Notes: a model not told the origin generated them from the letters alone. 64,000 nucleotides of DNA from Candidatus Aldehydirespirator sp. (GCA_965221215.1 OZ244872.1:1636936-1700935); one strand, 5' to 3'; shown: positions 29,494 through 50,730, counted from the stretch's first letter. Numbers and translations are program-made.

Positions 29494-31296
29494 ATGCCTT
29501 CGCCTGGCCTGCACCCCGACCGCAGCCGGTTGTGGCTGCGGCGGATCCTGCCGGTGGTGGTGCCCTACCGGGCCAGGTTCGCGGCCTCCGCCGCGGCCGG
29601 CCTGGTGTCGGTGGCGGCCACCGCGGCGGTGCCGGTGGCCATCGGGCGGGGGGTGGACGCAGCCGCGGCCGGTGAGGCGCTGCGGCCCTGGGTGCTGGCG
29701 GTGGCCGCTTTGGCCGCGGCCCGATTCGGGCTGGGCTTCGCCTACCGCTACGGGCTGTTCCGCACCGCCCACTGCATCGAGGCCGACCTGCGCAACCTCG
29801 TGTACGAGCGCCTCACCGAACTGTCGTTCTCGTATTGGGACCGCACCCAGACGGGGCAGGTCATCTCGCGGGCCAACAGCGACATTCGCTCCATCCAGCT
29901 GCTCTTCGCCTTCGGCCCGCTGGTGGCCATGCAGATGGCGCTGCTGGTGATGGGCACCGCCGCCATGGTGGCGCTGTCGCTGCCGCTGACCGCAGTGGCG
30001 ATGGCGCCTCTGCCGCTGGTGCTGTACGTGGGGGTCCGGCTGCGCAACCGGGTCTTCCCGCTCACCTGGGTGACGCAGGCCCGGATGGCCGACGTGGCCA
30101 TGATCGTGGACGAGAACATCCAGGGCGCCCAGGTGGTGCGCACCTTCGCCCAGGAGCAGGCCCAGGTGGAGCTGCTGGCCCGGTCGGCCCGGCGGCTGCG
30201 CTGGGCGGGCACGGCCACCGCCAGCGCCCGGGCCCGCCACGCCCCCCTGATGGAGGCGCTGCCCCGGTTCGGGCTGGCGCTGGTGCTGCTGGTGGGCGGG
30301 CTGCTGGCCATCGACGGCGCCGTAGCGGTGGGCGACATCGTGGCCTTCAACGCCTACGTGCTGCTGATGGCGGCCCCGTTCCGGATGATCGGCTTCGTGC
30401 TGATCCAATGGCAGCGGGCCTCGGCCGCGGCCCAGCGTGTGTTCGAGATACTCGACGAGTCGCCCGAGATCACCGAGCGCCCCGATGCCGTGGGCCTGGT
30501 GGCGCCGGCGGGCCGGGTGGAGTTCGACGACGTGGGCTTCGCCTACGGCACCGGCGACGGCGCCGCCATCCTCGACGGCTTCGCGCTCACCGTGGAACCC
30601 GGCGAGACGGTGGCGGTGGTGGGCCGCACCGGCAGCGGCAAGAGCACACTGGGCCGGCTGCTGCCCCGCTTCTACGACGTCGACCGGGGCGCGGTGCGCG
30701 TCGACGGCGTCGACGTGCGGGATCTGCGCCTGTCGGATCTGCGCCGGGCGGTGACGGTGGCCACCGACGACCCGTTCCTGTTCGCGGCCAGCGTCCGCGA
30801 CAACGTGGCCTTCGCCCGCCCCGACGCCGACGAGGCCTCGGTGGCGGTGGCGCTGGTGGACGCAGCCGCGGGGGGCTTCGTGGCGGCCATGCCCGGCGGC
30901 GCCGACGCCAGACTCGGCGAGCGGGGCTCGACCATCTCCGGCGGCCAGCGCCAGCGGGTCGCCATCGCCCGGGCCCTGGTAGCCGATCCGGCGGTGCTGG
31001 TGCTCGACGACGCCACCAGCGCCATCGACACCGAGGTGGAGGAGCGCATCCACTCGGCCCTGCGCCGACGGCGCTCGCAGCGCACCACCATCGTGATCGC
31101 CCACCGCCTGTCCACCATCGCGCTGGCCGACCGGGTGGTGTTCATCGCCGACGGTCAGGCCGCGGCCAGCGGCAGCCACCGCCATCTGCTGGCGACGGTT
31201 CCCGCCTACGCCGAGGTGCTCACCGATATGGGCGCCGCCAACGATGCGGCCCGCTCCCCCGACCGGCTCCGCGACCCTCAGTCTTCCGATGGCTGA
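29494..31296 (+). CDS. ABC exporter half (TMD + NBD), MsbA/Atm1-like
   Basis: GRTGSGKST, ISGGQRQR, VLDDATS. TAGCTT -10 at 29482-29487. Confidence 0.92.
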   Translation: MPSPGLHPDRSRLWLRRILPVVVPYRARFAASAAAGLVSVAATAAVPVAIGRGVDAAAAGEALRPWVLAVAALAAARFGLGFAYRYGLFRTAHCIEADLRNLVYERLTELSFSYWDRTQTGQVISRANSDIRSIQLLFAFGPLVAMQMALLVMGTAAMVALSLPLTAVAMAPLPLVLYVGVRLRNRVFPLTWVTQARMADVAMIVDENIQGAQVVRTFAQEQAQVELLARSARRLRWAGTATASARARHAPLMEALPRFGLALVLLVGGLLAIDGAVAVGDIVAFNAYVLLMAAPFRMIGFVLIQWQRASAAAQRVFEILDESPEITERPDAVGLVAPAGRVEFDDVGFAYGTGDGAAILDGFALTVEPGETVAVVGRTGSGKSTLGRLLPRFYDVDRGAVRVDGVDVRDLRLSDLRRAVTVATDDPFLFAASVRDNVAFARPDADEASVAVALVDAAAGGFVAAMPGGADARLGERGSTISGGQRQRVAIARALVADPAVLVLDDATSAIDTEVEERIHSALRRRRSQRTTIVIAHRLSTIALADRVVFIADGQAAASGSHRHLLATVPAYAEVLTDMGAANDAARSPDRLRDPQSSDG

Positions 31297-31411
31297 ACGA
31301 CTGTCCATCGGAACCGGCGCCAGGCGCAGGTGCGACACCCGGATCGACTCGCTGGCCCGCTCGATGAACGAACCGGCCATCGGAGCCGGCACCGACAGCA
31401 GGCGCGGCTGA
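31289..31411 (+). CDS. Putative 40-aa relay mini-ORF between the two ABC exporter genes
   Basis: ATG overlaps the upstream stop (ATGGCTGA); its TGA overlaps the downstream ATG (TGATG); no internal stop. Expression is unproven. Confidence 0.4.
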   Translation: MAERLSIGTGARRRCDTRIDSLARSMNEPAIGAGTDSRRG

Positions 31412-33333
31412 TGTTCTCGTCTCCAGTGGGGATGCGCAGCGGCCCGAGCTCGGTGCAGGCCGCGGCCCAGGCCGGTCTGCCCCACGCCGAGGTGCCCGGC
31501 GACCTGAGGGCCCGGGTCGAGCGGGTGCTGGCCGACGAGCCGGACCATCGGGACCCGGCAGTGCAGTGGTCCCGCACCGCCGACGAGTCCGAGGGCCGGT
31601 TCGGGCTGGGACGGTTCCTGTGGCCCCACCGCTACCGGCTGGCGATGGCCCTGCTGCTGGTGACGGCCGAGACGGTGGCGCTGCAACTCGGTCCCGTGCT
31701 CACCCAGATCGGGGTGGACCACGGCATCGTGGCCGGCGACCGCCGCGTGCTGGTGACCGCCGCGCTGGCCTATGCAGGCCTGCTGGCGGTGGCCGCCGCG
31801 GCCGCCGCGGCCCGCACCGCGTTCACGGGCCGGCTCGGCGAGCGGCTGCTGGAGCGCCTGCGAGTGCGAACGTTCGAGCACATGCAGCGCCAGCAGATGG
31901 ACTTCTATACCACCGAGCGGGCCGGCGTGCTGCTGACCCGCATGACCTCTGACATCGAGGCGCTGTCGGTGCTGTTCAACGAGGGCGTCGTCAACTTCGC
32001 GCTCCAGGGGCTCACCCTGGCGGTGATCACCGTTCTGCTGTTCAACTACGACCCGCTGCTGGCCCTGGTCACCCTGGCCGCGGCGGTGCCGGCGACGGTG
32101 GCGTCGTCGATGTGGTTCCGGCGGCGGGCCGCGGCCGACTACCGCAACGTGCGCGACCGCATCGGCGACCTGCTCGGCAACCTCCAGGAGTCGCTGGCCG
32201 GGATCCGGGTGATCGCGGCCCACGACCGGCGCGACGTCAGCGTGGCCGAGCACCGCCGGGTCGTGAACCGCCACCGCGACGCCAACCTGCGAGCCTCGCG
32301 GGCCAACTCGCTGTACGGTCCCGGCAGCGAGGCCATCGGCATCGCCACCCAGGCCGTGCTGCTGGGCGTGGGCGGGGCCATGACCGCCAGCGGCCGGATC
32401 ACGGTGGGAGAGCTGGCCGCCTACCTGCTGTTCCTGACCGCCTTCTTCGCGCCGGTGCAGGCCCTGGTGCAGCTCTACAACTCGTACCAGCAGGGCGGCG
32501 CGGCCATCGCCAAGCTGCGCGAGCTGTTCAACACCCGGCCCTCGGTGACCGACCGTCCCGGCGCGGCGGCTCTGGCGCCGGTGCGCGGCGAGATCGACCT
32601 CGACGGCGTCTGCTTCTCGTACCGAGACGGCCACCCGGTGCTACACGACGTGAGCCTGCACGTCTCGCCGGGGGAGACGGTGGCGCTGGTGGGCGAGACC
32701 GGGGCCGGCAAGTCGACCATCGCCCGGCTCATCGCCCGGCTGTACGACCCCACGCAGGGGGCGGTGCGCATCGACGGCCGCGACCTGCGCGACGTCACCG
32801 TCACCAGCCTGCGTTCCCAGATCGGCGTGGTGTCGCAGGAGCCGTTCCTGTTTGCGGGCACGGTGCGCGACAACGTGGGCTTCGCTCGACCCGGCGCCAG
32901 CGACGCCGAACTGCTGGCCGCCCTGGACGCGGTGGGCATGGGCGAGGTGGCTGAGCGCCTCGGCGGGCTCGACGGCGTGGTCCACGAGCGGGGGGCCACC
33001 CTGTCGGCGGGCGAGCGCCAACTCCTGGCCTTGGCCCGGACGTTCGTGTCGGAGCCGCGGGTGCTGGTGCTCGACGAGGCCACCAGCAACCTCGACCTGC
33101 GCTCGGAGGCCCAGATCGAGCAGGCCCTCGACGTGATGTTGAGGGGGCGGACCGCGGTGATCATCGCCCACCGCCTGGCCACGGCCCGGCGGGCCGACCG
33201 GATCGCGGTGATGGACGCGGGACGCATCGTCGAGATCGGCAGCCACCGCGAGCTGGTGGAAGCGGGCGGGCGCTATGCCACCATGTTCGCCATGTGGGAG
33301 AGCCACGCCGCCACCGACGCTGCGACCCGATGA
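31411..33333 (+). CDS. ABC exporter half (TMD + NBD), heterodimer partner
   Basis: GETGAGKST, degenerate signature LSAGERQ, VLDEATS, IIAHRL. Confidence 0.92.
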   Translation: MFSSPVGMRSGPSSVQAAAQAGLPHAEVPGDLRARVERVLADEPDHRDPAVQWSRTADESEGRFGLGRFLWPHRYRLAMALLLVTAETVALQLGPVLTQIGVDHGIVAGDRRVLVTAALAYAGLLAVAAAAAAARTAFTGRLGERLLERLRVRTFEHMQRQQMDFYTTERAGVLLTRMTSDIEALSVLFNEGVVNFALQGLTLAVITVLLFNYDPLLALVTLAAAVPATVASSMWFRRRAAADYRNVRDRIGDLLGNLQESLAGIRVIAAHDRRDVSVAEHRRVVNRHRDANLRASRANSLYGPGSEAIGIATQAVLLGVGGAMTASGRITVGELAAYLLFLTAFFAPVQALVQLYNSYQQGGAAIAKLRELFNTRPSVTDRPGAAALAPVRGEIDLDGVCFSYRDGHPVLHDVSLHVSPGETVALVGETGAGKSTIARLIARLYDPTQGAVRIDGRDLRDVTVTSLRSQIGVVSQEPFLFAGTVRDNVGFARPGASDAELLAALDAVGMGEVAERLGGLDGVVHERGATLSAGERQLLALARTFVSEPRVLVLDEATSNLDLRSEAQIEQALDVMLRGRTAVIIAHRLATARRADRIAVMDAGRIVEIGSHRELVEAGGRYATMFAMWESHAATDAATR

Positions 33334-33443
33334 CACCGACGACAACCATGACGCCGAGACGGACAGTGACGCCGACGCAGACAGTGACGCGGGTGCCGTC
33401 AACGAGGTCGAGCCACGCCGCCACCGACGGCGCGATCCGATGA
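33330..33443 (+). CDS. Putative 37-aa relay mini-ORF
   Basis: Begins at ATGA 33330-33333 (upstream stop) and ends at ATGA 33440-33443 (downstream start); flanked by a 42-bp duplicated junction. Confidence 0.45.
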   Translation: MTPTTTMTPRRTVTPTQTVTRVPSTRSSHAATDGAIR

Positions 33444-34261
33444 CGCCGACGCCCACATCGAGCCGCGACGACGCGGTGCTTTCACTGCGGGGGGTTCAGC
33501 GCACTATCGACGGCGCCCGCCTGCTGGGTGACATCGACTGGGAGGTGCATCCGGGCCAGCGGTGGGTGGTGCTCGGCCCCAACGGCTCGGGCAAGACAAC
33601 CCTGGTGCGGATCGCCACGATGTGGGACCACCCCTCCGCCGGAGTGGTCGAGTTGCTGGGCGAGCGGCTGGGACAGACCGATGTGCGGCGGCTGCGGGCC
33701 GGCGTCGGGTTCACCAGCGCGGCGATGGCCGCCATGTTGCAGCCGTCGCTGACCGCGGCGGAGGTGGTGATGACGGCCAAGCACGCCGCGCTGGCCCCGT
33801 GGTGGCATGCCTACGACGCCGACGACGCCGATCGGGCTCGGGCCGCCCTGGAGCGGGTCGGCTGCGGGGACCGCCTCGATCAGCGTTTCGGGACGCTGTC
33901 GTCGGGCGAGCGCCAGCGGGTGCTGCTGGCCCGAACCCTGTCGACGGCGCCGGGAGTGATCGTCCTCGACGAGCCCAACGCCGGACTCGACCTCGCCGGC
34001 CGCGAGCAGCTACTGGCCACGCTGAGCCGTCTGGCCGCCGACCCGCAGACCCCGCCGCTGGTGCTGGTGACCCACCACACCGACGAGATCCCCGACGGTT
34101 TCACCCACGCCCTGCTGATGCGAGACGGCGCGGTGCTGGCCGCCGGTCCGCTGGACGAGACCCTGACCAGCGAGAGCCTGTCGGAATGCTTCGGCCTCGA
34201 TCTAACCCTCGAGCGCCGCCACGGCCGCTGGCACGCCCAAGCCCATCAGCCGAGCGAATAG
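33440..34261 (+). CDS. ABC ATP-binding protein, YlmA/ModF-like
   Basis: GPNGSGKTT, LSSGERQRV, LDEPNAGLD, LVTHH. Confidence 0.88.
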   Translation: MTPTPTSSRDDAVLSLRGVQRTIDGARLLGDIDWEVHPGQRWVVLGPNGSGKTTLVRIATMWDHPSAGVVELLGERLGQTDVRRLRAGVGFTSAAMAAMLQPSLTAAEVVMTAKHAALAPWWHAYDADDADRARAALERVGCGDRLDQRFGTLSSGERQRVLLARTLSTAPGVIVLDEPNAGLDLAGREQLLATLSRLAADPQTPPLVLVTHHTDEIPDGFTHALLMRDGAVLAAGPLDETLTSESLSECFGLDLTLERRHGRWHAQAHQPSE

Positions 34262-34362
34262 ACCCGAGACCGTCGGCAGAGTCGGCGCGGACGCGCCTGG
34301 GTACACATCGTCGCACGCCGGTAGCTTCCCATGATGGTGTTCGGTGGGTGGCCGGTGTCGGT

Positions 34363-35562
34363 ATGACCGCCGGCTTCGACATGACGGCACTGCTGCGGCC
34401 AGGGCTCCCCGCAGAGGCGGCCGAATGGACCGGGGATCCGCCGTTCAACTTCGTCGGTGGCCACAACGACCCGGCCAGCGTGCCCTTCGGCGGCCTGGCT
34501 GAGGCCGCGGCGACAGCGCTGGCTCGCCACGGCCCGGCCCTAGCCGCATACAACCTCGCGGGCAGTCCCCAGGGCCACCTGCCGCTGCGGGAGTTCGTGG
34601 CGGAGGCACTGGCCCGCCGGGCGCAGATGCCCACCGACCCGTCGGAGGTCCTGGTCACGTCGGGGTCGCTGCAGGCTCTCGACCTGGTGAACGCCGCCCT
34701 GCTCGCTCCCGGCGACGCCGTGGTCGTCGAGAAGTCCACCTACGCGGGCACCCTGAGCCGCCTGGCCGACCTGGGCGCCGAGGTGCACGGCGTCGAACTC
34801 GATTCCGACGGGATGCGTATCGACCACCTCGACGAGGTGCTGGAGTCGCTGAGCCGCCGAGGCCGGCGACCGAAGTTCGTCTACACGATCCCGACCGTGC
34901 AGAACCCCACTGGCACGGTGATGCCACCGACGCGCCGGCTCGAGCTGCTGGAGACGGCCCGACGCCACGGGATCGCCGTGTTCGAGGACGACTGCTACGC
35001 CGACCTGACCTTCGACGGCGAGCGTCCGCCCACGATCCGCTCGCTCGACGCCGGTGGCGGCCAGGTCGTGTATTGCGGCTCGTTCTCCAAGACGCTCGCC
35101 CCGTCCCTGCGGCTGGGCTACGTGGTGGCCGACTGGCCGGTGATGAGCCGGCTGCTGGCGCTCAAGACCGACGCCGGATCGGGTGCGCTGGAGCAGATCA
35201 CCGTGGCCGAGTACGCCGCCGCCCACTTCGACGACCACGTCAAGGCGCTCACCGCGGCGCTGCACAACAAGTGTGACGCCCTCTGCGGCGCTCTGCGGGG
35301 CAGCTTCGGTGACCTGGCCCGCTTCGAGGCGCCGAAAGGCGGGATCTTCGTGTGGGTGGCGCTGCCCGACGGCATCGACACCGACCGGCTGGTGGCACCC
35401 GCCGCGGCGCGCGGTGTGGAGTTCAATCCGGGATCGGCCTGGTGCACCGATCCCGACTACGGAGCGAGCCGCATGCGCCTGTGCTTCGGCCATCTTCGCC
35501 CCGACGCGATCACAACCGGCATCGCCGCCCTGGCTGAAGTAGTGCGAGAAAGCCTGCACTGA
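34363..35562 (+). CDS. PLP-dependent class I aminotransferase (MocR/LysN-like)
   Basis: TIPTVQNPTG, EDDCY, GSFSKTLAPSLRLG. Confidence 0.9.
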   Translation: MTAGFDMTALLRPGLPAEAAEWTGDPPFNFVGGHNDPASVPFGGLAEAAATALARHGPALAAYNLAGSPQGHLPLREFVAEALARRAQMPTDPSEVLVTSGSLQALDLVNAALLAPGDAVVVEKSTYAGTLSRLADLGAEVHGVELDSDGMRIDHLDEVLESLSRRGRRPKFVYTIPTVQNPTGTVMPPTRRLELLETARRHGIAVFEDDCYADLTFDGERPPTIRSLDAGGGQVVYCGSFSKTLAPSLRLGYVVADWPVMSRLLALKTDAGSGALEQITVAEYAAAHFDDHVKALTAALHNKCDALCGALRGSFGDLARFEAPKGGIFVWVALPDGIDTDRLVAPAAARGVEFNPGSAWCTDPDYGASRMRLCFGHLRPDAITTGIAALAEVVRESLH

Positions 35563-35581
35563 CCAGCGGGCCGCGCACCCC

Positions 35582-35738
35582 CTAGAGGCCGAGCGAATAG
35601 GTGAGAGATTCCGGCCCATACGGGCGAGGCCGTGGGCTGTGTCACTGGGGTTTGGGCGGCCCGTGAGCGCAGCGCACAAGAGTGGGAGACGCCCCGCGGC
35701 GACGCGACCGTCTCTCACCTATTTGCGCGCGCTTCTAG
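35582..35738. mobile_element. MITE-like non-coding element bounded by CTAG with imperfect terminal inverted repeats
   Basis: CTAG at 35582 and 35735; perfect 13-bp IR AATAGGTGAGAGA (35596-35608) / TCTCTCACCTATT (35711-35723); outer arms partly complementary; no coding capacity. Confidence 0.55.
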
Positions 35739-36397
35739 GTTGCGGCCAGGCCCAGACCAGCCACAGCGCCGGCCGGTCGGATGGCCAGGAGCACGCCCTC
35801 GACCACGTCCACGGTGGGCGGCGCGGCCACGATCACGTTGGACGTGCCGCGTCCGGAGGTGGGGTTCAGCGCCTCCTGGGCCAGCGGGAACAGCAGCCCG
35901 GTGGTGGACGCCACCAGCGCGGGCCCGCCCACCGCCAGCAGCGACACGACCTCGCCCACCTCGCCCCGCAGCCGGCGCAGGCCCCGCACCACGGTCACAT
36001 GGGCCTCCCCCACCGTGGCCGAGATCTCCAGCGCAGCCCAGCGGGGCGAGGCCAGCACAACCAGGCTGGCCATGGCCTGATCGAGCCGCCCGCCGGCGGG
36101 CAGCAGCACATGCACCGCCTCAACCTGGGCCAGCGCCGCGGCCATGGCCAGTTCGAGATCGGTAGCGTCCTTGTCGATGGGATGGGAGTCGATGACTGCG
36201 CCGTCCCGCTTGGCCCAGTCCAGCGCGGCCTCGCTGGCGGAGTCCAGGTCGCCCACCACCGCGTCGACCCGCAGTCGCCAGCGCCGGGCCGCATCGAGTC
36301 CGCCGTCGGCCGCGATCACCAGATCGGGCGATCCGGTGGCCGGCGCCTCGCCGTGCTGGTCGCCCGCTACCAGCAGGGCCCACGACCTGCGCTTCAC
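35735..36397 (-). CDS. thiN: Thiamine diphosphokinase
   Basis: IAADGGL, VVGDLDS, DKDATDLELA, GGRLDQ, GTSNVI. Confidence 0.9.
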   Translation of the reverse strand: MKRRSWALLVAGDQHGEAPATGSPDLVIAADGGLDAARRWRLRVDAVVGDLDSASEAALDWAKRDGAVIDSHPIDKDATDLELAMAAALAQVEAVHVLLPAGGRLDQAMASLVVLASPRWAALEISATVGEAHVTVVRGLRRLRGEVGEVVSLLAVGGPALVASTTGLLFPLAQEALNPTSGRGTSNVIVAAPPTVDVVEGVLLAIRPAGAVAGLGLAAT

Positions 36398-36441
36398 AGG
36401 ATCGTGCCCCGGCGCGCTCGAGCCGTGCCGGGGCCGGTCAC
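36394..36441 (-). CDS. Putative 15-aa relay mini-ORF between the M23 peptidase and thiN
   Basis: GTGA overlap with the M23 stop (36441-36438) and GTGA overlap with the thiN start (36397-36394); open frame (M)TGPGTARARRGTIL. Confidence 0.4.
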   Translation of the reverse strand: MTGPGTARARRGTIL

Positions 36442-37655
36442 GGCAGGTAGGGCGTGGGATCCACGGCCCGGCCGTCGATGCGCAGCTCGAAGTGCAGGTG
36501 GGGGCCGGTAGACCAGCCGGTGGAGCCGATGGCGCCGATCTGGTCACCGCTTTGCACCTGCTGGCCGACCGCCACGTCGATGCGGCTCAGATGGCCGTAG
36601 AGGGTGCTGTATCCGAGTCCGTGGGAGATCACGATGGCGTTGCCGAAACCGCCCCGCACACCGGCCAGGATCACTTCGCCCGAGCGGGCCGCCCGAACCC
36701 GGTCGCCGGTGTCGCCGCCGAGGTCGATCCCGTTGTGCTGGCGCACGGTGCCGAAGATGGGGTGGACCCGAGGCCCGAATCCCGAGGTCTTCTCACCGTC
36801 GGCGGGCCAGGCCACCAATTCGAAGGGCCCGTGCTCGGCCTCGTGGCGGCGGCGCTCCTCCTCGATGCGGCGACGGCGCTCCTCCTCCTCTTGGCGGCGG
36901 CGCTCCTCCTCCCGGCGCCGGATCTCATCCTCGATGCGGTTGATCTCCTGCTCCATCTCCCGGTCGGTCTGCTCGATCTCGGCCGACACGAGATTCCATT
37001 CGTCGATGCGGGCCTGGATCTCAGCGCGCAGCTCCATGGCCGCGGCACGGGCTTCCTCTAGGTCGGCCAGGCGCTGCTGCTGGGCCTGCCGCTCCCGGTC
37101 GGCGTCGGCGGCCCGGTCGAGGGCCCGCTGGCGCACCACCTCGAGCTGGGCCTCGGCCACGCGCAGCTCGTCGGTGATCTCCAACTCGCTGCCGATGGCC
37201 AGCTCGAGCAGGAACAGCCGCACCGCGCTCTCGTTGAGGCTGGTCGAGAACTGCTCGACCACGTCGACGGACGGCTGGACGTAGGCCTCGATGGCCCGCC
37301 GGCGCAGCCGCTCCCGGATGGATTCGATCTCCTCGACGAACTGCTCGGCCTCGGCCCGGGCCTCGTCCGCCTCGGCCTCCGCCGCGGCGATGGCCGCCTC
37401 GGCCGCCTCGATCCGGGTCTGCTGGAGCTCGATGTAGCTGTCGAGCTCGCTGAGCGCTTCGATCAGAGCCTCGTCGTCGGCGATGAGCGCATCGACCTGT
37501 CCGGCCACCTCGGCCGCGTCTCGTGCCAGCAGCTCTCGCTGCCGACGAAGGTCCTCAATCTCTCCCTCGCTTTGGCCCACTGCCGCCGTCGCCATCAACG
37601 CAGCCGCCGTCACCGTCAGCAAGAGCGCGCCAGAGAGGATGCGCAACTTACGCAC
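36438..37655 (-). CDS. Secreted coiled-coil + M23 peptidase (EnvC/murein hydrolase activator-like)
   Basis: Signal peptide, long heptad-rich region, HNGID, GFGNAIVISH, YGHL, STGPHLHFE. Start at GTG 37655 is inferred. Confidence 0.9.
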   Translation of the reverse strand: MRKLRILSGALLLTVTAAALMATAAVGQSEGEIEDLRRQRELLARDAAEVAGQVDALIADDEALIEALSELDSYIELQQTRIEAAEAAIAAAEAEADEARAEAEQFVEEIESIRERLRRRAIEAYVQPSVDVVEQFSTSLNESAVRLFLLELAIGSELEITDELRVAEAQLEVVRQRALDRAADADRERQAQQQRLADLEEARAAAMELRAEIQARIDEWNLVSAEIEQTDREMEQEINRIEDEIRRREEERRRQEEEERRRRIEEERRRHEAEHGPFELVAWPADGEKTSGFGPRVHPIFGTVRQHNGIDLGGDTGDRVRAARSGEVILAGVRGGFGNAIVISHGLGYSTLYGHLSRIDVAVGQQVQSGDQIGAIGSTGWSTGPHLHFELRIDGRAVDPTPYLP

Positions 37656-37924
37656 AGCAGCGACCGTAACGAAACAGCAATACTTCCGCAATCTGTCGGC
37701 GACGCTTCGGGCGACCACCCCGTGCAGCATCGACATGTCGGCCCTGTCGAGACGGATCGCGGTTCAGGTGAAAGGGCGGTCGAAGGGTGGCTGGGGGCGG
37801 GGCTCGCTGGACCTCGGACAACACCGCCCTCGATGTTAGGTCCGCCCCACCGCCCCGCCGTGCATCCCGAAGCGCCGTGTCACCAGCCCCTCCATCCACA
37901 GCCAACGTCCCTTGCAGAGCACAT

Positions 37925-39295: not shown

Positions 39296-39378
39296 GGGAT
39301 CACCGGGGCTCTGGCCGTTGCGTCTAGCCGGGCCTCGAACGGCGGCTGTCCGGCATCGCGGCTCTGTGATTGCACCGG

Positions 39379-39452
39379 TGGGCGATACTGGACTCGAACC
39401 AGTGACCTCTGCCGTGTGAAGGCAGCGCTCTAGCCATCTGAGCTAATCGCCC
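39379..39452 (-). tRNA. tRNA-Val (anticodon CAC)
   Basis: Reverse complement GGGCGAT...ATCGCCCA; anticodon arm CTGCC-TTCACAC-GGCAG; T-loop GGTTCGAGTCC. Confidence 0.97.
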
Positions 39453-39617
39453 GAGACGAGCGAGGCTACCACCGACCCCCCGACCGGACTACGAGGCCAG
39501 ACCGGATCCTCCCCCTGCGCGGCAGCCGCCAAGCTGCACGGGATGCATCAGTCTTTGCGGGCAACCGCTGCCTCCAATACGTTGCATGAGGTTGTTGATC
39601 AAGGTTTGGAGGGCCGT

Positions 39618-39992
39618 ATGGGAACGTTCACAGTCACGCTGGGAGTCGGCGATCCGCAGGGGCGCCGGTACGAGAACGTGGAGGTCATGGTCGATTCTGG
39701 TGCCGCCTACACCGTGCTGCCGACATCGATGCTCGAGCGGCTCGGCGTGACGCCCTACGACATGCGGGGATTCGTCCTAGCAGACGGACACCGAGTGGAG
39801 CGGGGCTTCGGCAGGACTTGGATGCGCCTCGACGGCAAGCAGGACATGTCGCCGGTCGTGTTCTGGGACGAGGACTCGCTGCCGCTTCTCGGCGCCGTGA
39901 CCCTCGAAATCTTCGGCCTCGGCATCGACCCGGTGAACGCCCGCCTCATCGACATCGACGCCTACGTGCTGTCCGCACAAACCGCAGCCTGA
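39618..39992 (+). CDS. Small single-domain retropepsin-like (clan AA) aspartic protease
   Basis: VDSGAAYTVLP (D-S-G), LLGAVTLE; SD GGAGG. Confidence 0.85.
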   Translation: MGTFTVTLGVGDPQGRRYENVEVMVDSGAAYTVLPTSMLERLGVTPYDMRGFVLADGHRVERGFGRTWMRLDGKQDMSPVVFWDEDSLPLLGAVTLEIFGLGIDPVNARLIDIDAYVLSAQTAA

Positions 39993-41518: not shown

Positions 41519-41611
41519 CAAACGGCGCCTTTCGCAGCGGGCTGGCAGTCTGCCGATGCAATCCGAGAATGTGCGGTTTGCGCCCGAGCGTCTCGCGGCG
41601 CGGCATTGTCG

Positions 41612-41653
41612 CTCCTGCTGTTGTTCGCGACGCTCACGGGCCGCTCGGCCTCT
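41612..41653 (-). repeat. Copy of the dispersed intergenic repeat family, abutting the murF stop
   Basis: Reverse complement of 41612-41644 matches 35656-35688 at 27/33; AGAGGCCGAGCG matches 35584-35595. Confidence 0.7.
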
Positions 41654-43008: not shown

Positions 43009-43077
43009 ACCGCGAGTGTGGCACGCCCAGCCGAGGGCGCGGTTCACCGGCCACCGCCCGGCGCTAGCGTCGCCGGG

Positions 43078-44238
43078 GTGGAGGACCGAAGGGCCACAGC
43101 CGGAGTTGAAGTCGCGGACGGGCACAGGATCAGGCTGGTGGTGCTGTTCGGGGGGCGCTCGGCCGAGCACGACGTGTCGTGCGTGTCGGCCCGCCATGTG
43201 GTGGCCGCCGCCGACCCCACGAAATACGTCGTCGAACCGGTCGGCATCACCCGACAGGGGCGCTGGGTGCGTGCCGCAGCGGCAATCCAAGCCCTGAAGG
43301 CGGGGCCGGACGCGCTGCCCGAGCAGCTCAGCACCGCCGGTCCCGAGGTCGAGCCCCTGCCGACGCTGGTCTCACACCCCAACACCGCGGCCACAGTGGT
43401 GCTGCCCGTCCTGCACGGCCCCAACGGGGAGGACGGCACCGTGCAGGGTCTGCTGGAACTGGCCGGGGTGCCCTACGCCGGCGCCGGCGTGCTGGCCTCG
43501 GCGCTGTGCATGGACAAGACCGCGGCCAACACCATGCTGGACGCGGCCGGCATCGCCCATGCGCGGTGGCGGAGCTTCACGCTCGACGATCCGGCCGCGA
43601 CCGACGCCGAACTCGCCCGCAGCGTTGAGTCCCTCGTGGACGAACTGGGCCTGCCCGTGTTCGTCAAGCCGGCCAGCATGGGATCCTCGGTCGGCATCAC
43701 GAGGGCGGTCAACCGCCAGCAGGTGGCGGACGGCCTCCGTCTGGCGTCTCGCTATGACCGCCGCGTCATCGTGGAGGAGGCAGTCACAGCCCGAGAGGTC
43801 GAGGTGGCCGTGCTGGGGAACGACGATCCCGAGGCCAGCCTGCCCGGAGAGATTGTCCCCGGCGCCGAGTTCTACGACTATGCCGACAAGTACGAGGACG
43901 GCGCCGAACTGCTGATTCCGGCCCCCCTCGACGACGACGAGTCAGCAGCGTGCCGGAGTCTGGCCATCGACGCCTACCGGGCTCTGCGGGTGGAGGGCCT
44001 GGCCCGGGTGGACTTCCTGTACGAGGACGGCCGCGACGGCCGCGGCGACCGGGGCTGGCTGGTCAGCGAACTCAACACCATGCCCGGCTTCACCCCCATA
44101 TCGATGTACCCCAAGCTGTGGGCGGCCAGCGGACTCCCCTACCCCCAGCTCATCGACCGACTCGTGGCCCTGGCCCTGGAGCGGCACGCCCGGTGCGAGC
44201 AGCACGCCTTCACCGAGCCCACCCTTCACATCGACTGA
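43078..44238 (+). CDS. ddl: D-alanine--D-alanine ligase
   Basis: FGGRSAEHDVS, LHGPNGEDG, KPASMGSSVG, YDYADKY, ELNTMPGFT. TAGCGT -10 at 43065-43070, 7 nt before GTG. Confidence 0.96.
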   Translation: MEDRRATAGVEVADGHRIRLVVLFGGRSAEHDVSCVSARHVVAAADPTKYVVEPVGITRQGRWVRAAAAIQALKAGPDALPEQLSTAGPEVEPLPTLVSHPNTAATVVLPVLHGPNGEDGTVQGLLELAGVPYAGAGVLASALCMDKTAANTMLDAAGIAHARWRSFTLDDPAATDAELARSVESLVDELGLPVFVKPASMGSSVGITRAVNRQQVADGLRLASRYDRRVIVEEAVTAREVEVAVLGNDDPEASLPGEIVPGAEFYDYADKYEDGAELLIPAPLDDDESAACRSLAIDAYRALRVEGLARVDFLYEDGRDGRGDRGWLVSELNTMPGFTPISMYPKLWAASGLPYPQLIDRLVALALERHARCEQHAFTEPTLHID

Positions 44239-44648
44239 TCGACAGAAGGGGCGCGCCCACTCAGGCTCTCAGGGGTCGTTTGGCGGAACAATGACCTCGC
44301 ATCGAGGGCCGCTGGCTCGGGCGATGCGACGATCGAGGGTGATCAGCGGCCATCCCACCGTCTCGGCTAGGGCGACGTACCACGCGTCGTAGGCGGTGAC
44401 GTTGGCTCGCAATTCCCACACGCGCTCCGCAAAGGGAGCAAACGGGTAGCGCTCCATGTTGAGCCGAAGCAGGTCCCGGCACGCGGCTGTCGCCTCGAGG
44501 CGCGTGACCCATCCGGTCAGCTCCAGCCGCCGCAGCAGGTTCGTGGCTTCCGCTAGGGCCAGTTCGGGCACAGCCAAGGAAGCCGTAGAGATCGCAGCGC
44601 GAGCCCAAGGGCCGTCAGTCTGCGAATCGACTAGAGCCGCTACCAGCA

Positions 44649-46093
44649 GGTGGCGTCTCATCGCCGGTGTAATAGCAGCAGGGGCGTAGGTTCCTTCAGA
44701 GAGATGTCGACTCAAGAAGGAGACCTACGCCCGTGCCTGCACGAGTATCGCCCACAGAAGCTGTCCGCGCCGAGATCGACGAGTTGTTCGGCTCGGGACG
44801 CGACATCGCCGAGGTCCTCGAGGAGGTGATGCGCCTGTCGGCGCGGCTTGTGTTGCAGCAGGTCCTCGAGGATGAGGTCACGGCCTGGCTGGGCCGGGGC
44901 TGGAACTCGCGTGCCGAGGGCGGGCGCGCCGGTCAGCGCAACGGCTACGGCGACTTGACGGTCAAGACCACCGCGGGGCCCGTGGCGCTGCGCCGCCCGA
45001 AGCTGCGCAACACCGCCGAGGCGTTCGCGTCGCAGCTTCTGGGCAAAGGCGTGGTGCGCTCTGAGCCGCTGGAGGCGCTGGTGATCTCAGCGTGGGTGCG
45101 GGGCCTGTCTGACCGCGACATCGAGGCCTTGTTGGCGGAGGCGCTGGGACCGGAGGCCGCTTTGTCGAGGTCCACCGCGTCGCGGATCTGCGCGCGGCTG
45201 CGTGAGGAGTTCGACACGTTCCGCAGCTCAGACCTCTCCGATATCGAGCTGGACTACCTGTTCGTTGACGGCAGCCACTTCAAGATGCACGACGGGTCAC
45301 GCGCTGAACCGGTGCTGGTCGCCTACGGCATCACTACCCTCGGCCGGCCGGTGCTGCTGGCCGTGGAGCCCGGCGGCGACGAGTCCTACGACGCCTGGGC
45401 AGACTTCCTCGAAGACCTCACCGGCCGGGGGCTGCGGCCGCCGCTGCTGGTCGTCTCAGACGGCGCCGCGGGCCTCATCGGCGCCGTCGAGACCAAAATG
45501 GCCTCCTCGCTGCGCCAGCGGTGCCTCATCCACCGCTGCCGCAACGTGTTGGCCAAGGTCCCCGCCGGTCGCCGAGACGAGCTCAAGGCCGCGTTCTGGG
45601 CGATCTTCGACCTGCCCGACGGCATCGAGCCCGGCCAGGGGGCCGTGAGCGCGGCACAAGCCGGCATCGACGGCTTCGCCCGCCGCTACCAAAGCGAGTT
45701 CCCCGCCGCCGTGAAGTGCCTGCTCACCGACCGCGCCGCGCTCACCGCGCACCTGCGGTTCCCCGCAGAGCACCACCGCAGGATCCGCCACACCAACCTG
45801 ATCGAGCGCACCTTCGGCGAGACCCGCCGAAGAGTCAAAGTCATCGGCCGGCTCCCCGGCGAAGCCAGCTGCCTCACACTGGTATGGGCCGTGCTCGACC
45901 GGGCCTCAAACGGCTGGCGAGGCCTCACCTACACACCCGCCATCGCCCGAGCCCTCACCGAGCTCCGACACCAACTCCACCAACCCGCCCGCACCAACAC
46001 CGACCAGCCCGACCGCACCGTCACACGCGCCGCCTAACATGACCACCGGAACCTGCGCCCCAACCGCTATTACACCCAATCTGGGACGCCACC
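44649..46093 (+). mobile_element. IS256-family insertion sequence, 1445 bp, 9-bp TSD CTACCAGCA
   Basis: TIRs GGTGGCGTCTCATCGCCGGTGTAATAGC and (reverse complement) GGTGGCGTCCCAGATTGGGTGTAATAGC; TSD at 44640-44648 and 46094-46102. Confidence 0.95.
44733..46037 (+). CDS. IS256/Mutator-family DDE transposase
   Basis: GQRNGY, GLSDRDI, LFVDG, VVSDG, QRCLIH, TNLIERTFGE; SD AAGGAG. Confidence 0.95.
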   Translation: MPARVSPTEAVRAEIDELFGSGRDIAEVLEEVMRLSARLVLQQVLEDEVTAWLGRGWNSRAEGGRAGQRNGYGDLTVKTTAGPVALRRPKLRNTAEAFASQLLGKGVVRSEPLEALVISAWVRGLSDRDIEALLAEALGPEAALSRSTASRICARLREEFDTFRSSDLSDIELDYLFVDGSHFKMHDGSRAEPVLVAYGITTLGRPVLLAVEPGGDESYDAWADFLEDLTGRGLRPPLLVVSDGAAGLIGAVETKMASSLRQRCLIHRCRNVLAKVPAGRRDELKAAFWAIFDLPDGIEPGQGAVSAAQAGIDGFARRYQSEFPAAVKCLLTDRAALTAHLRFPAEHHRRIRHTNLIERTFGETRRRVKVIGRLPGEASCLTLVWAVLDRASNGWRGLTYTPAIARALTELRHQLHQPARTNTDQPDRTVTRAA

Positions 46094-46123
46094 CTACCAG
46101 CACCGACGAATCGACAACAGCAC

Positions 46124-46360
46124 TCACTTGCGGTCAGCGTCACGGGCTTCAAGGATGACAGAGGCCGGAATCACGGTGCCCGAGGCATCGACGCGGCGGC
46201 GAACCTCGTTCATCACGGTCTCGATTGAAGGCAACCCAGAGAGCCGTTCCAGTTCGCCGAGCAGGTACTCCTGCATGGACTGACGCTTGAGAGCGGCTCG
46301 GGCCGCCAGCTCGTCGCGAACCTCCTCGGGCACATTCCTGATGGTGATCTGAACTGGCAT
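46124..46360 (-). CDS. vapB: FitA/VapB-like ribbon-helix-helix antitoxin
   Basis: QITIRNVPEEVRDELAARAA...SMQEYL; stop overlaps the vapC GTG (GTGA 46127-46124). Confidence 0.88.
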   Translation of the reverse strand: MPVQITIRNVPEEVRDELAARAALKRQSMQEYLLGELERLSGLPSIETVMNEVRRRVDASGTVIPASVILEARDADRK

Positions 46361-46522
46361 GCAAGCATTTTGCCTTCAGTGCCAGCAGTTTGCAATTGCC
46401 CGGTTGGTTGTAGCGGATGGCGGCGGTCAACTATCAAGACTCGGGAACCGGTCTGCGGCCATGCTGCAATTCTCAACGGCGGTTGTGAGCCTCTGGCGCC
46501 CGCAGGCACTAGAACTAGCGGC

Positions 46523-48919
46523 GTGATCGCCGAGTCTCTCGCCGGCAAGCGCATCGCCATCACCGGGGCCACCGGGTTCTTGGGGACCGCGCTCACCGAG
46601 CGCCTGCTGCGCTGCGTGCCCGACTGTGAGCTGGTGCTGGTGGTGCGACCGGGCCGCCGGGGAGCGGCCCAGCGGGTGGAGCGAGACGTGCTGCGCAACG
46701 ACGCCTTCGAACGGCTCCGCCAGCAGATGGACGGCGACGACACGGCGGCCACCGACGCCGAACCCGCCAGAGCAGGCGCCGCCGGAGCGGAGACCTACGA
46801 CGAGATGGCGGCCCGGCGGGTCACCGCCCTCGCCGGCGACGTCGGCATCGACGGGCTTGGACTCGACGACGAGGGCCGGGCCCTGCTGGCCGGCTGCGAC
46901 GTCGTGATCCACTCGGCGGCCACCGTGAACTTCGACTCCGCCCTCGACGACGCGGTGGAGGTCAACCTCCTGGGACCGGCCCGGGTGGCGACAGTGCTGG
47001 CCGAGGCAGGATCGCAGGCCCACCTGATCTCGGTGTCTACCTGCTACGTGGCCGGCAGCCGCCGCGGCGCCGCCGGTGAACAGCTGGTGGACGACTCGCC
47101 GTTCTTCATCGGCGTCCCCTGGCAGGACGAGGTCGACAGCGCCCGCCAGGCCCGCCGCGACGCCGAGCAGGCCAGCCGCAGCCCCGAGCAGCTCGCCGAC
47201 CTGTCGGCCCAGGCCCGCCGGGAGCTCGGCGCGGCCGGCATCCCCGCTCTCGCCGACAAGGTGGAGAGCCTGCGGCGGCGCTGGGTGGGCGACCAGATGA
47301 CCAGAGCGGGCCGGGCCAGGGCGGCGAGCCTCGGCTTCCCCGACGCCTACGCCTTCACCAAGGCCCTGGGCGAGCGGGCGCTGGCCGAGACCCGCGGCGA
47401 CATCGCCGTCACCATCGTGCGGCCCTCGATCATCGAGTCGGCCCTGGCCGAGCCCCGCCCCGGATGGATCAGGGGCTTCCGCATGGCCGAGCCGGTCATC
47501 GCGGCCTATGCTCGGGGCCTGCTCAAGGACTTTCCCGGTGTGCCCGAGGGCGTCATCGACGTGATCCCGGTGGACCTGGTGGTGGCCACCATCCTGGCGG
47601 TGGCGGCCCGAGGCCCGGTCGAGCCCACCCCCGACGTCATCCAGGTGGCCAGCGGGTCGATCAACCCGCTGAAGTACGGCAAGCTCTTCGACCTGGTGAG
47701 CGGCTGGTTCACCGAGCATCCCGTCTACGACGAGTACAACCAGCCGATCCCGGTGCCGCGCTGGTCGTTCCCGGGCCGGGGCCGGGTGGCCCGCCAGCTG
47801 CAGCGGGCCCAGCGCTCGCTGGAGGCCGCCGACCGGGTGCTGTCGGCTCTGCCGCTGCGGGGCCGCCACGCCCTGATGAGCGCCGGCGTGGAGGAGCGGC
47901 GCCAGCAGCTCGGACGGGCCAACGAATACGTCGAGCTGTACGGCGCCTACGCCGAGTGCGAGGCCATCTACCAGCTCGACCGGCTCATGGAGCTGTGGAA
48001 CTCGCTCGACGACGCTGACCGGGCCGAGTTCTGCTTCGACCCGGCCGTGATCGACTGGACCCGCTACGTGCACGAGGTGCATCTGCCGTCCATGGTGGAG
48101 CAGGCCCGACTGAAGATGGCGCCGGGGGCCGGCACGGGCCGCAGCCAGTCGCGTTCGGTGCGCCTGCGCCGCCAGGTGCTCGACCCGCAGCGCCATTTGG
48201 CCGTGTTCGACCTGGAGAACACCCTCATCGCCTCCAACGTGGTGGCCAGCTACGCCTGGCTGGCCACCCGCGAGCTCGACGACCTCGACCGGCTGCGCTT
48301 CGTGGCCCGCACCCTGGGCGAGGCGCCCCGGCTGCTGGCGCTGGACCGGCGCGATCGCAGCGACTTCCTGCGCTACTTCTACCGGCGCTTCGAGGGCGCT
48401 CCAGTGGACCGCATCGGCGCCGACTGCTCCGAGATGCTCAGCGACCTGCTCATCACCAAGTCGTTCCCCCAGGGGCTGCGCCGGGTCCGCGAGCACCGGC
48501 GGGCGGGACACCGGACGCTGCTCATCACCGGAGCGCTCGACTTCGTGGTGGCTCCGCTGCGGCCCCTGTTCGATCACATCATCGCAGCCGAGATGAGCGC
48601 CAGCGACGGCGTGTACGACGGGCGGCTCACCGCGGTGCCCCCCACCGGCGAGGCCCGCTACCAGACGCTGGTCGACTTCACCGAACTGCACGGCCTCGAC
48701 CTGCGGGAGTCGGTGGCCTACGCCGACAGCACCTCGGACCTGCCGATGCTGGAAGCGGTGGGGTTCCCGGTGGCGGTCAACCCCGAGACCAAGCTGGCCG
48801 CGCTGGCCCGGCGCCGGGGCTGGCTGATCGAGCACTGGTCGAAGAGCGCGGGGGCGCCGGCCAAGCCTCTGCCGCTGGCGCCGCGGACCCGCCGCGCCGA
48901 CCTCGTAGGGTCCCGCTGA
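46523..48919 (+). CDS. Fatty acyl-CoA reductase (male-sterility type SDR) fused to a HAD-IB phosphatase
   Basis: ITGATGFLG, HSAATV, YAFTK, RPSII, DVIPVD; then FDLENTL, ITGAL and AYADSTSD HAD motifs. Confidence 0.85.
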   Translation: MIAESLAGKRIAITGATGFLGTALTERLLRCVPDCELVLVVRPGRRGAAQRVERDVLRNDAFERLRQQMDGDDTAATDAEPARAGAAGAETYDEMAARRVTALAGDVGIDGLGLDDEGRALLAGCDVVIHSAATVNFDSALDDAVEVNLLGPARVATVLAEAGSQAHLISVSTCYVAGSRRGAAGEQLVDDSPFFIGVPWQDEVDSARQARRDAEQASRSPEQLADLSAQARRELGAAGIPALADKVESLRRRWVGDQMTRAGRARAASLGFPDAYAFTKALGERALAETRGDIAVTIVRPSIIESALAEPRPGWIRGFRMAEPVIAAYARGLLKDFPGVPEGVIDVIPVDLVVATILAVAARGPVEPTPDVIQVASGSINPLKYGKLFDLVSGWFTEHPVYDEYNQPIPVPRWSFPGRGRVARQLQRAQRSLEAADRVLSALPLRGRHALMSAGVEERRQQLGRANEYVELYGAYAECEAIYQLDRLMELWNSLDDADRAEFCFDPAVIDWTRYVHEVHLPSMVEQARLKMAPGAGTGRSQSRSVRLRRQVLDPQRHLAVFDLENTLIASNVVASYAWLATRELDDLDRLRFVARTLGEAPRLLALDRRDRSDFLRYFYRRFEGAPVDRIGADCSEMLSDLLITKSFPQGLRRVREHRRAGHRTLLITGALDFVVAPLRPLFDHIIAAEMSASDGVYDGRLTAVPPTGEARYQTLVDFTELHGLDLRESVAYADSTSDLPMLEAVGFPVAVNPETKLAALARRRGWLIEHWSKSAGAPAKPLPLAPRTRRADLVGSR

Positions 48920-49008
48920 TGGCTGCCCTCCCGCGCGCAGACTTCACCGGGAGACCGGCCTGGATGGCAGCCGTGCGCCCGCACCCCTCACCGGCAGGGC
49001 TCGCCTGA
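48919..49008 (+). CDS. Putative 29-aa relay mini-ORF
   Basis: TGATG overlaps at both ends (48917-48921 and 49006-49010); open frame MAALPRADFTGRPAWMAAVRPHPSPAGLA. Confidence 0.45.
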   Translation: MAALPRADFTGRPAWMAAVRPHPSPAGLA

Positions 49009-50621
49009 TGGCAGCCGAACGAAGAAGTGCCCCGCGGCCGGGGCTGGTGCTCGAGGTCGACCGCTCCACGCCGCCGATCCTGTTCCACCACGGCGAGGGC
49101 TTCCGGTTGGAGAGGCTGCCGCCGGGCCGCAGCCGGATCATCTACCCGGCCGAGCCCCTCGCCGGCCTCCCCGACCCCGAGGCCGCCATCCGCCACGCCC
49201 TGCTCAACCCGCTCGACTCCGATCCGCTGCCGTCGCTGCTGCGGCCCGGCATGAAGCTCACCATCGCCTTCGACGACATCTCGCTGCCGCTGCCGCCTAT
49301 GCGGCGTCCCGACATCCGCCAGCGGATAATCGAGCAGGTTCTCGACATGGCGGCCGCCGCCGGAGTGGACGACGTCCACCTCATCGCCGCGCTGGCCCTG
49401 CACCGCCGCATGACCGACGACGAGCTGCGCCACGCGCTGGGCGAGCGGGTGTTCGACGCCTTCGCCCCGCAGGGCGCGCTCTACAACCACGACGCCGAGG
49501 ATCCCGACGGCATGGTGGAGCTGGGCCGCACCAACCACGACGAGCTGGTCACCATGAACCGCCGGGCCGCGGAGAGCGACCTGCTGGTGTACGTCAACAT
49601 CAACCTCGTGTCGATGGACGGGGGCTGGAAGTCCACCGCCACCGGCCTGGCCGACTACCGGGCGCTGCGCCACCACCACAACGTGGGCACCATGCAGCGC
49701 TCCCGCTCGTTCATGGACCGCCACCGCTCCGAGTTGCACCACTCCAACTGGCGCCAGGGCGAGGTGATCAAGGCCAACGGGCCGCCCATCTTCCAGATCG
49801 AGACCACCGTCAACAACAACACCTTCGGCCTCGACGGCCCCCTGGCCGTGCTGCAGAAGCGAGAGTGGGAGTGGAGCGCCCGAGACCGGGCCTCGTTCAT
49901 GGCCATGCACGCCGGGCTGCGGGCCATGCCGGCCTCCGCCTGCCGGGGCGTGTTCAACCGCTGGCTGGCGCCCTATGAGATGACCTCGGTGCAGGCCGGC
50001 GCGGTGGAGCCGGTCCACGAGAGCACCACCGCCAACGTGCTGGCCCAGCATCTGGTGCCGGTGCAGGGCCAGACCGACGTTCTCACCATGGGGCTGCCCT
50101 ACATCTGCCCCTACAACGTCAACTCGGTGATGAACCCGATCCTGGTGATGTGCCTGGGCTTGGGCTACTTCTTCAATCTCTACCGGGGCCGGCCGCTGGT
50201 GCGCGAGGGCGGCGTGGTCATCATGAGCCACCCCACCCGCCGGGAGTTCCACCCGGTGCACCACCCCAGCTACATCGACTTCTTCGAGCAGGTGCTGGCC
50301 GAGACCACCGACCCGGCCGAGGTGGAGGCCAAGTACGAGGCCCAGTTCGCCACCGACGAGTGGTATGTGCACCTCTACCGCACCAGCTACGCCTACCACG
50401 GGGTGCATCCCTTCTACATGTGGTACTGGGGGGCGCACGCCCTGCAATGGCTGGGACGGGTGATCGTGGTGGGCGGCGACGAGCGGGCAGTGCGGCGGAT
50501 GGGCTTCCAGCCCGCATCCACCCTGTCGGACGCTCTGGAGATGGCCAGCGACGTGGTGGGCCCGGCACCCACCATCACCCACCTGCACAACCCGCCCATC
50601 CTCATGGCCGACGTGGAGTAG
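49008..50621 (+). CDS. Lactate racemase (LarA/DUF2088)-like protein
   Basis: TIAFDDISLP, ALALHRRM, NHDAED, NRRAAESDL, GGWKS motifs. Family assigned from memory of the N-terminal domain. Confidence 0.7.
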   Translation: MAAERRSAPRPGLVLEVDRSTPPILFHHGEGFRLERLPPGRSRIIYPAEPLAGLPDPEAAIRHALLNPLDSDPLPSLLRPGMKLTIAFDDISLPLPPMRRPDIRQRIIEQVLDMAAAAGVDDVHLIAALALHRRMTDDELRHALGERVFDAFAPQGALYNHDAEDPDGMVELGRTNHDELVTMNRRAAESDLLVYVNINLVSMDGGWKSTATGLADYRALRHHHNVGTMQRSRSFMDRHRSELHHSNWRQGEVIKANGPPIFQIETTVNNNTFGLDGPLAVLQKREWEWSARDRASFMAMHAGLRAMPASACRGVFNRWLAPYEMTSVQAGAVEPVHESTTANVLAQHLVPVQGQTDVLTMGLPYICPYNVNSVMNPILVMCLGLGYFFNLYRGRPLVREGGVVIMSHPTRREFHPVHHPSYIDFFEQVLAETTDPAEVEAKYEAQFATDEWYVHLYRTSYAYHGVHPFYMWYWGAHALQWLGRVIVVGGDERAVRRMGFQPASTLSDALEMASDVVGPAPTITHLHNPPILMADVE

Positions 50622-50625
50622 CCCG

Positions 50626-50730
50626 ATGGCATTGCGTCGATCACCGTGCCGGACGCAGCATGACGGCTCTACCGGGTACTCGGCACCAAGCCGCGATGAG
50701 GCCGGACGCGGCATGGCCGACGTGGAATAG
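50626..50730 (+). CDS. Putative 34-aa relay mini-ORF
   Basis: ATG 4 nt after the upstream TAG; ends MADVE-TAG (a copy of the upstream gene's last codons) 3 nt before the plsC GTG. Confidence 0.4.
   Translation: MALRRSPCRTQHDGSTGYSAPSRDEAGRGMADVE

Follow-up and report, generated by a model that had tools for sequence, protein, structure and literature searches.

The short open reading frames (ORFs) that bridge many same-strand gene junctions in Candidatus Aldehydirespirator sp. are probably by-products of short insertions and duplications at former stop/start overlaps (ATGA, GTGA or TGATG), and this bridging, or relay, looks like a passive consequence of insertion and not like a dedicated device. 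Overlapping stop/start junctions are the commonest bacterial way of tying the expression of neighbouring genes together. We analysed a stretch of 64,000 nt (the window; genome bases 1636936-1700935), in which an earlier note had described five such bridged junctions (here J1 to J5), together with the whole genome (G000; class Acidimicrobiia; a single contig of 3.37 Mb with 69% G+C) and ~8-kb samples from relatives; the statistics cover this one genome and those samples. Genes were called with a self-written hexamer-based caller, which gave 2726 genes over 84% of the genome; its stop codons are reliable and its start codons are not. A relay spacer was defined as a same-strand gap of 20-150 nt holding a single ORF that starts a few bases from the upstream stop and ends a few bases from the downstream start. 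At both ends of the relays, stop and start codons overlap or abut, with offsets of -4, -1 or -8.

Duplicated junctions were detected by aligning the 60 nt around each gene's stop to the following 300 nt (score of at least 30). Results showed that the junction window was repeated within 300 nt downstream at 126 gene ends, compared with 2.7 in permuted pairs and 23 in the upstream control. Copies most often lay 71 nt apart, where the distances formed a sharp peak (24 cases; one such junction is at genome position 186234), and smaller peaks flanked it at 65, 68 and 74 nt. In 25 junction duplicates the present gap was 4 nt shorter than the period, as it would be had the junction once been a 4-nt overlap; plain, unexpanded 4-nt overlaps number 219 in the genome. 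Relay frames were likewise in excess. Open relays occupied 152 of the 882 same-strand spacers of 20-150 nt, compared with 22 on the antisense strand of those spacers, and pairs of a left start and a right stop sharing one frame numbered 176 against 102 expected (z = 9.6), with 34 observed and 37 expected in the antisense control. Across the genome, relay frames are thus more frequent than chance would give. NTGA-to-NTGA relays made up 94 of the 152, and among the 162 spacers with NTGA at both ends 104 were in frame (p = 1e-15) and 94 open. Meantime, the histogram of spacer lengths showed excesses at 64, 67 and 70 nt, matching the periods of the duplicates.

The periods differed by location. 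Among events of 60-80 nt, those inside genes had periods of 66, 69, 72 and 75 nt, those across junctions 68, 71 and 74 nt, and those in non-coding DNA 72 nt. At former 4-nt overlaps 12 of 13 events had a period of 2 mod 3, whereas in non-coding DNA 8 of the 26 events in this size class did (Fisher p = 4e-4), and the ratio of 71-nt to 72-nt periods was 24:5 at junctions and 4:11 in non-coding DNA (p = 6e-4). This sorting by frame, read against a control from within the same genome, favours a frame filter.

A simple scheme would account for these frames. Each event would leave the junction in two copies, the first retaining the upstream stop with a spare start and the second a spare stop with the working downstream start, so that whatever sits between them would be bracketed by a start and a stop. 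At a 4-nt overlap, the spare start and the spare stop would share a frame only if the period is 2 mod 3, and ribosomes would then terminate on the real start and could re-initiate there. A period of 0 mod 3 would let the spare start extend the downstream protein at its N-terminus, and with 1 mod 3 ribosomes would pass the real start out of frame. The spare start, lying in its native context, would be used by ribosomes, and termination-reinitiation would act as the filter on the periods that survive. More than one source lies behind the events: ordinary tandem duplication, whose units measure 8-110 nt among relatives; at J1, the frameshifted tail of a gene; and, in this lineage, a burst of ~72-nt events whose dimensions are CRISPR-like. 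The spacers encode no conserved peptides and are not copies of a mobile element; the most fitting description is one of insertions, and of self-duplications of junctions, from which the surviving cases form relay ORFs.

All five window intervals reported in the earlier note are stop-free and begin and end where it had placed them. Its statement that five of five spacers are relays was too strong, as the window holds 12 same-strand spacers of 20-150 nt by our own gene calls, of which three are relays with our start calls and five with the starts of the earlier note. A degenerate duplication had also been claimed for every spacer. J2 and J5 contain clear copies of the junction and J1 and J4 degenerate tandem copies; J3 contains none. 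An Rfam scan found no family within any of the window spacers.

J2 is a clear case. Its first junction copy (33300..33341, plus strand) consists of the last 30 nt of the second of two ABC transporter genes (31411..33333, plus strand; Pfam, with its start at a conserved TGATG), followed by the ATGA overlap and by a copy of the codons with which the next gene opens. The second copy (33410..33451, plus strand) holds the working start (ATG 33440) of the downstream ABC ATPase gene (33440..34261, plus strand; Pfam ABC_tran). The two 42-nt copies lie 110 nt apart and agree at ~38 of 42 positions (local score 70). Between ATGA and ATGA runs a mini-ORF of 37 codons (33330..33443, plus strand; 114 nt), and the period of 110 nt is 2 mod 3. 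As the middle comprises 2.3-2.6 copies of an 18-nt tandem unit derived from the first codons of the downstream gene (Tandem Repeats Finder), J2 consists wholly of local sequence. J5 follows a similar plan. Its first copy (50603..50636, plus strand) carries the end of a LarA-like gene (MADVE, TAG) with a copy of the next gene's start, and its second (50712..50745, plus strand) the start of an acyltransferase gene (50734-51687); the 34-nt copies are 109 nt apart and identical at 30 of 34 positions (local score 43). The J5 mini-ORF (50626..50730, plus strand; 34 codons, 105 nt) has its ATG 4 nt past the upstream TAG and its own TAG 3 nt ahead of the acyltransferase GTG at 50734. A gene with a nucleotidyltransferase and a HEPN domain (51807-52808, plus strand) lies directly 3' of the acyltransferase gene, and the 119-nt spacer between these two is not a relay.

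J1 separates the two ABC transporter genes. The first of these (29530..31296, plus strand; start by our own call) encodes fused membrane and ATPase domains (Pfam ABC_membrane and ABC_tran). The mini-ORF (31289..31411, plus strand; 40 codons, 123 nt, stop-free) opens with an ATG 8 nt ahead of where the upstream stop ends (ATGGCTGA) and closes with a TGA that has one base in common with the start codon of the following gene (TGATG). Two degenerate units of ~50 nt lie at about 31286-31335 and 31357-31407 (local score 36). The earlier note had placed the start of the second ABC gene at the ATG at 31411 within TGATG, and rightly so: TGATGTTC is invariant in 13 relatives, that is, in 14 of 14 aligned sequences, which makes 31411 the true start. 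By sequence arithmetic, the frame of the mini-ORF is that of the upstream gene's ancestral tail. In other species ABC gene 1 reaches the TGATG; in G000 and its nearest relative (G006) it ends early in another frame, 115 nt earlier in the case of G000. The J1 mini-ORF is thus the cut-off old tail together with tandem units.

J4 (48919..49008, plus strand) lies between a reductase/HAD gene (46523-48919) and the LarA-like gene (49008-50621), and forms a mini-ORF of 29 codons (90 nt) from TGATG to TGATG with a period of 89 nt (2 mod 3). Three copies of ATGGC(T/A)GCC were found in it, at 48919, 48964 and 49008 (local score 23). J3 (36394..36441, minus strand), flanked by genes for an M23 peptidase (36438-37580) and a thiamin pyrophosphokinase (35735-36397), forms an open frame of 15 codons (48 nt) from GTGA to GTGA with a period of 44 nt. 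It is the weakest of the five cases: no duplication was detectable (local score 15), and the spacer showed only a GC-rich hairpin (fold z = -1.5). Elsewhere in the window, a tRNA gene lies at 39379-39452 (minus strand; Rfam, 68.7 bits).

The orthologous junctions were then compared among relatives. At J2 a single ATGA or GTGA with no spacer was present in nine of 13 aligned genus members. The same junction carries two 74-nt units with two 78-nt mini-ORFs in G006, and two extra 38-nt units of separate origin with two 42-nt mini-ORFs in G011. Across 57 genomes, J2 expansions of 11 to 107 nt per unit occurred in ~10 species, among them units of 17, 38, 53, 74 and 107 nt. All of these expansions chain through 4-nt overlaps to the real start and within the genus none overruns it, a result that is partly built in, because the chain-walking script defines its chains of 4-nt overlaps in a way that forces periods of 2 mod 3. 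An extreme case was seen in L039 (positions 4890-5210), where a repeated 17-nt unit at the J2-orthologous junction yields at least 12 chained mini-ORFs of 21 nt with 4-nt overlaps. At J1, the nearest relative has ~2.5 copies of a 72-nt unit. Of the 17 metagenome relatives in which the J4 gene order is conserved, 12 have the two genes directly coupled. At J5, 41 of 77 metagenome relatives had the genes directly joined (19 by a 4-nt overlap), 17 had a spacer bridged by one mini-ORF of 15-102 nt and 19 an unbridged spacer. Copy number at J1 and J2 differs between G000 and G006, and tandem arrays of three to five units exist. Exact-protein look-ups for near-identical strains at J2 and J5 gave no match.

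These results indicate that bridged spacers recur widely among Acidimicrobiia, and that the usual state of the junction, and probably its ancestral one, is a plain overlap. The earlier note had expected a plain TGATG or ATGA in relatives. At J1, J2 and J5 that was mostly what we found (ATGA, GTGA or TGATG), while several species have expansions of their own. Its suggestion that events duplicating junctions recur was confirmed, both genome-wide and independently at the same junction in other species. A different kind of change was also observed near the J2-orthologous junction: in L018 (genome G007) a dispersed repeat containing CCCGAGCGGCCCGTGAGCGAAGCGAACA disrupts the start region of the ABC ATPase gene, and this repeat occurs in tandem in G000 (C1:1574597 and 2573168).

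Whether the frames reflect a filter or mutation only was weighed on several grounds. Slippage duplications might be compatible at birth, with mini-ORFs that never matter for expression; we regard this as unlikely, although several points speak for it. A duplicated piece of coding sequence is necessarily open in its own frame, and the downstream gene retains its own upstream context. When, at the 219 plain overlaps, the final 90 nt of each upstream gene were compared with the opening 90 nt of its downstream neighbour for exact k-mer matches, 61% (k = 6), 75% (k = 8) and 83% (k = 10) of all matches lay at 2 mod 3. Such same-phase matches are common because of strong codon periodicity, and slippage between them would yield mostly compatible duplications in the absence of any filter. 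The share so predicted by microhomology (61-83%) is as high as that observed (61-77%), which weighs against the explanation that we favour, as do several further points. The non-coding control presumes that one mechanism produced the events at junctions and in non-coding DNA. The relay frame is open only slightly more often than the other two frames. A Shine-Dalgarno (SD)-like motif precedes the downstream start in 59% of relay spacers, as often as elsewhere, so this start could initiate without the relay, which may not be needed. At J5, unbridged spacers are as many among relatives as bridged ones, and noise comes from the crude gene caller, which did not find the true starts of J1 and J4. 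The codon-phased microhomology also invalidates the null of (1/3)^5 that the earlier note had applied to its five spacers. Its claim that selection keeps the frame-compatible products stands in so far as the survivors are mostly compatible; the bias alone is no proof of selection.

What tells against mutation only is the structure of the events. Many have a unique middle that slippage cannot produce, so microhomology gives no explanation for them, yet the modal period of duplicate-insert-duplicate events likewise moves from 72 nt in non-coding DNA to 71 nt at junctions. Spacers with no detectable duplication are still in frame in 61% of cases (54/89), a proportion that neutral indels should erode, although many of them are short and possibly not old. 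Chance has the smallest claim on the data, and we give it practically no credence. GC-rich DNA has few stops, so that most frames of these spacers are open, NTGA is common (three of the four bases before TGA give a start codon), and the pattern was deliberately sought; the excess of relays over the antisense strand, the frame test and the excess of junction duplicates over permuted pairs given above all exceed what this would produce. We consider it very improbable that the spacers are copies of a mobile repeat, MIRU-like or of hairpin type, with stop/start overlaps as its target. Their place, their orientation and the overlapping small ORFs are as in MIRUs. No consensus across loci was found, though: ten 67-nt spacers aligned at both NTGA ends had 0.0-0.9 bit per position in their interiors, 15 spacers folded no better than shuffles (z from -1.5 to +1.6), and a search for second copies of the spacer interiors in the genome returned none, the insert sequences being unique in it. 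With neither a consensus nor a shared fold nor an Rfam family, a dispersed element was ruled out, and insertion and duplication at former overlaps remains the reading that we prefer.

The relay logic itself has a precedent. For mycobacterial MIRUs, a relay through a small ORF overlapping the flanking stop and start was proposed (Supply 1997, as summarised in PMC12548453, a 2025 review of translational coupling), and the earlier note's term "candidate new gene-architecture system" was therefore an overstatement. According to the same summary, MIRUs resemble the present spacers in being inserted between same-strand operon genes and in their small sense ORF with 4-nt overlaps; MIRUs occur in tandem units of variable number and are thought to pass ribosomes on, so that insertion costs little (PMC12548453). 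MIRUs are dispersed, share a consensus and are regarded as mobile, whereas the spacers in G000 are locus-specific copies of a junction with a unique or local middle; membership among MIRUs fails on the defining trait, the shared consensus. Both ends of the mini-ORFs have the codon geometry known from termination-reinitiation coupling (ATGA and TGATG, and short upstream ORFs that deliver ribosomes; PMC12548453). The difference is that two overlaps stand in series here with a junk ORF of 5-40 codons between them, the first start of which would have to be used. The minisatellites (variable-number tandem repeats) of GC-rich actinobacteria share with these loci their locus-specific tandem units at gene ends and a copy number that varies between relatives, but many events in G000 are 1.5-copy structures with an unrelated middle and not whole-unit repeats.

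A period of 64-76 nt characterised 88 of the 233 short-range direct repeats of G000 outside its two CRISPR arrays (38%), compared with three of 48 (6%) in 1.07 Mb from ~160 relatives, one of the three being in the nearest relative. At the density of G000, 28 would have been expected in the relatives (chi-square on counts, p ~2e-5). The six youngest non-coding events consist of perfect duplicates of 36, 36, 36, 37, 37 and 38 nt around unique inserts of 32-39 nt; they lie at genome positions 490029, 646925, 1061999, 1280359, 1486021 and 1619083. In older, imperfect events the period stays near 71 nt and the duplicates range over 20-59 nt; in 31 events with duplicates of 28-45 nt the lengths spread from 28 to 43 nt. 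An origin of the insert in the duplicate, in the 300-nt flanks or in their reverse complements was ruled out for 33 events, whose inserts were unrelated to any of these (mean z 0.2). Copying from elsewhere in the genome was likewise ruled out, save for one event (C1:2449230-2449340), whose insert matches the interior of a gene 259 kb away (2707923-2707955) at 30 of 33 positions; the match may reflect a protospacer taken from the genome itself or what is left of a paralogue. At C1:850283-850470, three copies of ~39 nt that hold a gene's stop codon enclose two inserts of ~33 and 41 nt, which are unrelated to each other (z = -0.1). At no other locus were differing "spacers" found laid out in the manner of CRISPR; the remaining multi-copy loci repeat the whole unit. 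Two other origins of a 72-nt period were considered and set aside. The non-coding events were examined as hidden genes: six of 21 events with a multiple-of-three period lie in a long ORF with high G+C at third codon positions, and 11 events of 72 nt lie outside such ORFs. Several 72-nt periods inside genes proved to be 24-residue leucine-rich repeats and were excluded from the argument. One large gene (C1:1780399-1782844) carries many such 72-nt repeats of leucine-rich type and is unrelated to the junction events.

The genome contains a type I-G CRISPR locus at 623-636 kb, with a Cas4g/Cas1g fusion (765 bits against a curated cut-off of 560), Cas7g, a 996-residue ORF (putative Cas3) and an array of 44 repeats of 36 nt with spacers of 35-40 nt. 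Close to it, a two-repeat mini-array of the 36-nt repeat was found at 637255, and at C1:639717-644115 separate Cas4 and Cas1 genes (the latter closest to type I-C Cas1) lie between near-identical 434-residue ORFs that are possibly transposases; this region resembles a mobile adaptation module. A second, I-E-like array (C1:1497080-1501899) repeats with a period of 61 nt and comprises ~79 repeats, which contain GACTCACCCCCGCGTGGGCGGGGA. One spacer is common to the first four units printed, and hence whole repeat-spacer units have been duplicated within a true array.

The ~72-nt class may have arisen by ectopic spacer integration through the resident type I-G Cas4/Cas1 fusion, a serious candidate to which we give somewhat less than even weight. 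It concerns the source of the insertions and is compatible with the explanation of the relay frames that we favour. The integrase would attack two points 36 nt apart, a foreign fragment of ~36 nt would be inserted, and gap repair would duplicate the 36-nt target; later, unequal crossing-over between the copies would generate arrays of whole units. The dimensions of the I-G array are close to those of the perfect duplicates and unique inserts of the six youngest events. The inserts are unrelated to their sites and, with the one exception above, match nothing else in the genome, the C1:850283 locus places two unrelated inserts between three duplicates, and the size class is specific to the lineage. 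Off-target integration that gives rise to new arrays is also known from E. coli over-producing Cas1-Cas2 (Nivala 2018, as reported in 10.1101/148544 and PMC7054753). The cases described there share with the present events a non-CRISPR site and a genome encoding the integrase; their unique spacer-sized insert, flanked by direct duplicates as long as the repeat, may have its counterpart in the youngest events of G000. Those sources describe over-producing E. coli and circumstantial cases in two species, whereas G000 is a wild genome with dozens of candidate fixed scars.

Several observations do not fit this origin. The period of the events is ~2 nt shorter than that of the true array (median 72 against 74 nt; Mann-Whitney p = 4e-7). 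The duplicates of imperfect events are broadly distributed around a steady period, and by eye the borders of the events show no motif common to the leader or the repeat. There is almost no signal at 61 nt to match the I-E-like array, and the J2 spacer in the window is made of local sequence and not of foreign DNA; J2, where relatives show the plain overlap, is no clean duplicate-insert-duplicate event. The inserts could not be traced to any source: searches with two insert cores against IMG/VR and with 29 inserts against INPHARED phages (BLAST) gave nothing, and one true spacer used as a control gave nothing either, so that this search is uninformative. We put forward only tentatively that G000 is a wild bacterium carrying dozens of fixed scars of off-target adaptation, each made by the I-G integrase with a 36-nt duplication. 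The surviving scars would have been sorted by frame, with periods of 72 nt outside genes, of multiples of three within them, and of 71 or 74 nt at overlapping junctions, where the insert would turn into a relay mini-ORF.

About one sixth of the medium-length same-strand spacers of this genome are start-to-stop bridges, and the periods of one class of insertions vary by location exactly as frame constraints predict. Such differences offer a sequence-only route to asking whether coupling is selected, and natural constructs with periods of 71, 72 and 73 nt are on offer for reporter assays. The genome also shows that no mobile element is needed for a relay architecture of the MIRU kind to arise. 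Should the ~72-nt class indeed stem from off-target adaptation, this genome would hold the first large record in nature of that process, together with its fitness filter. CRISPR adaptation would in that case act as a mutagenic force of measurable size, reshaping operon junctions and seeding minisatellites. The sorting by frame would then be a natural experiment showing selection on stop/start coupling.

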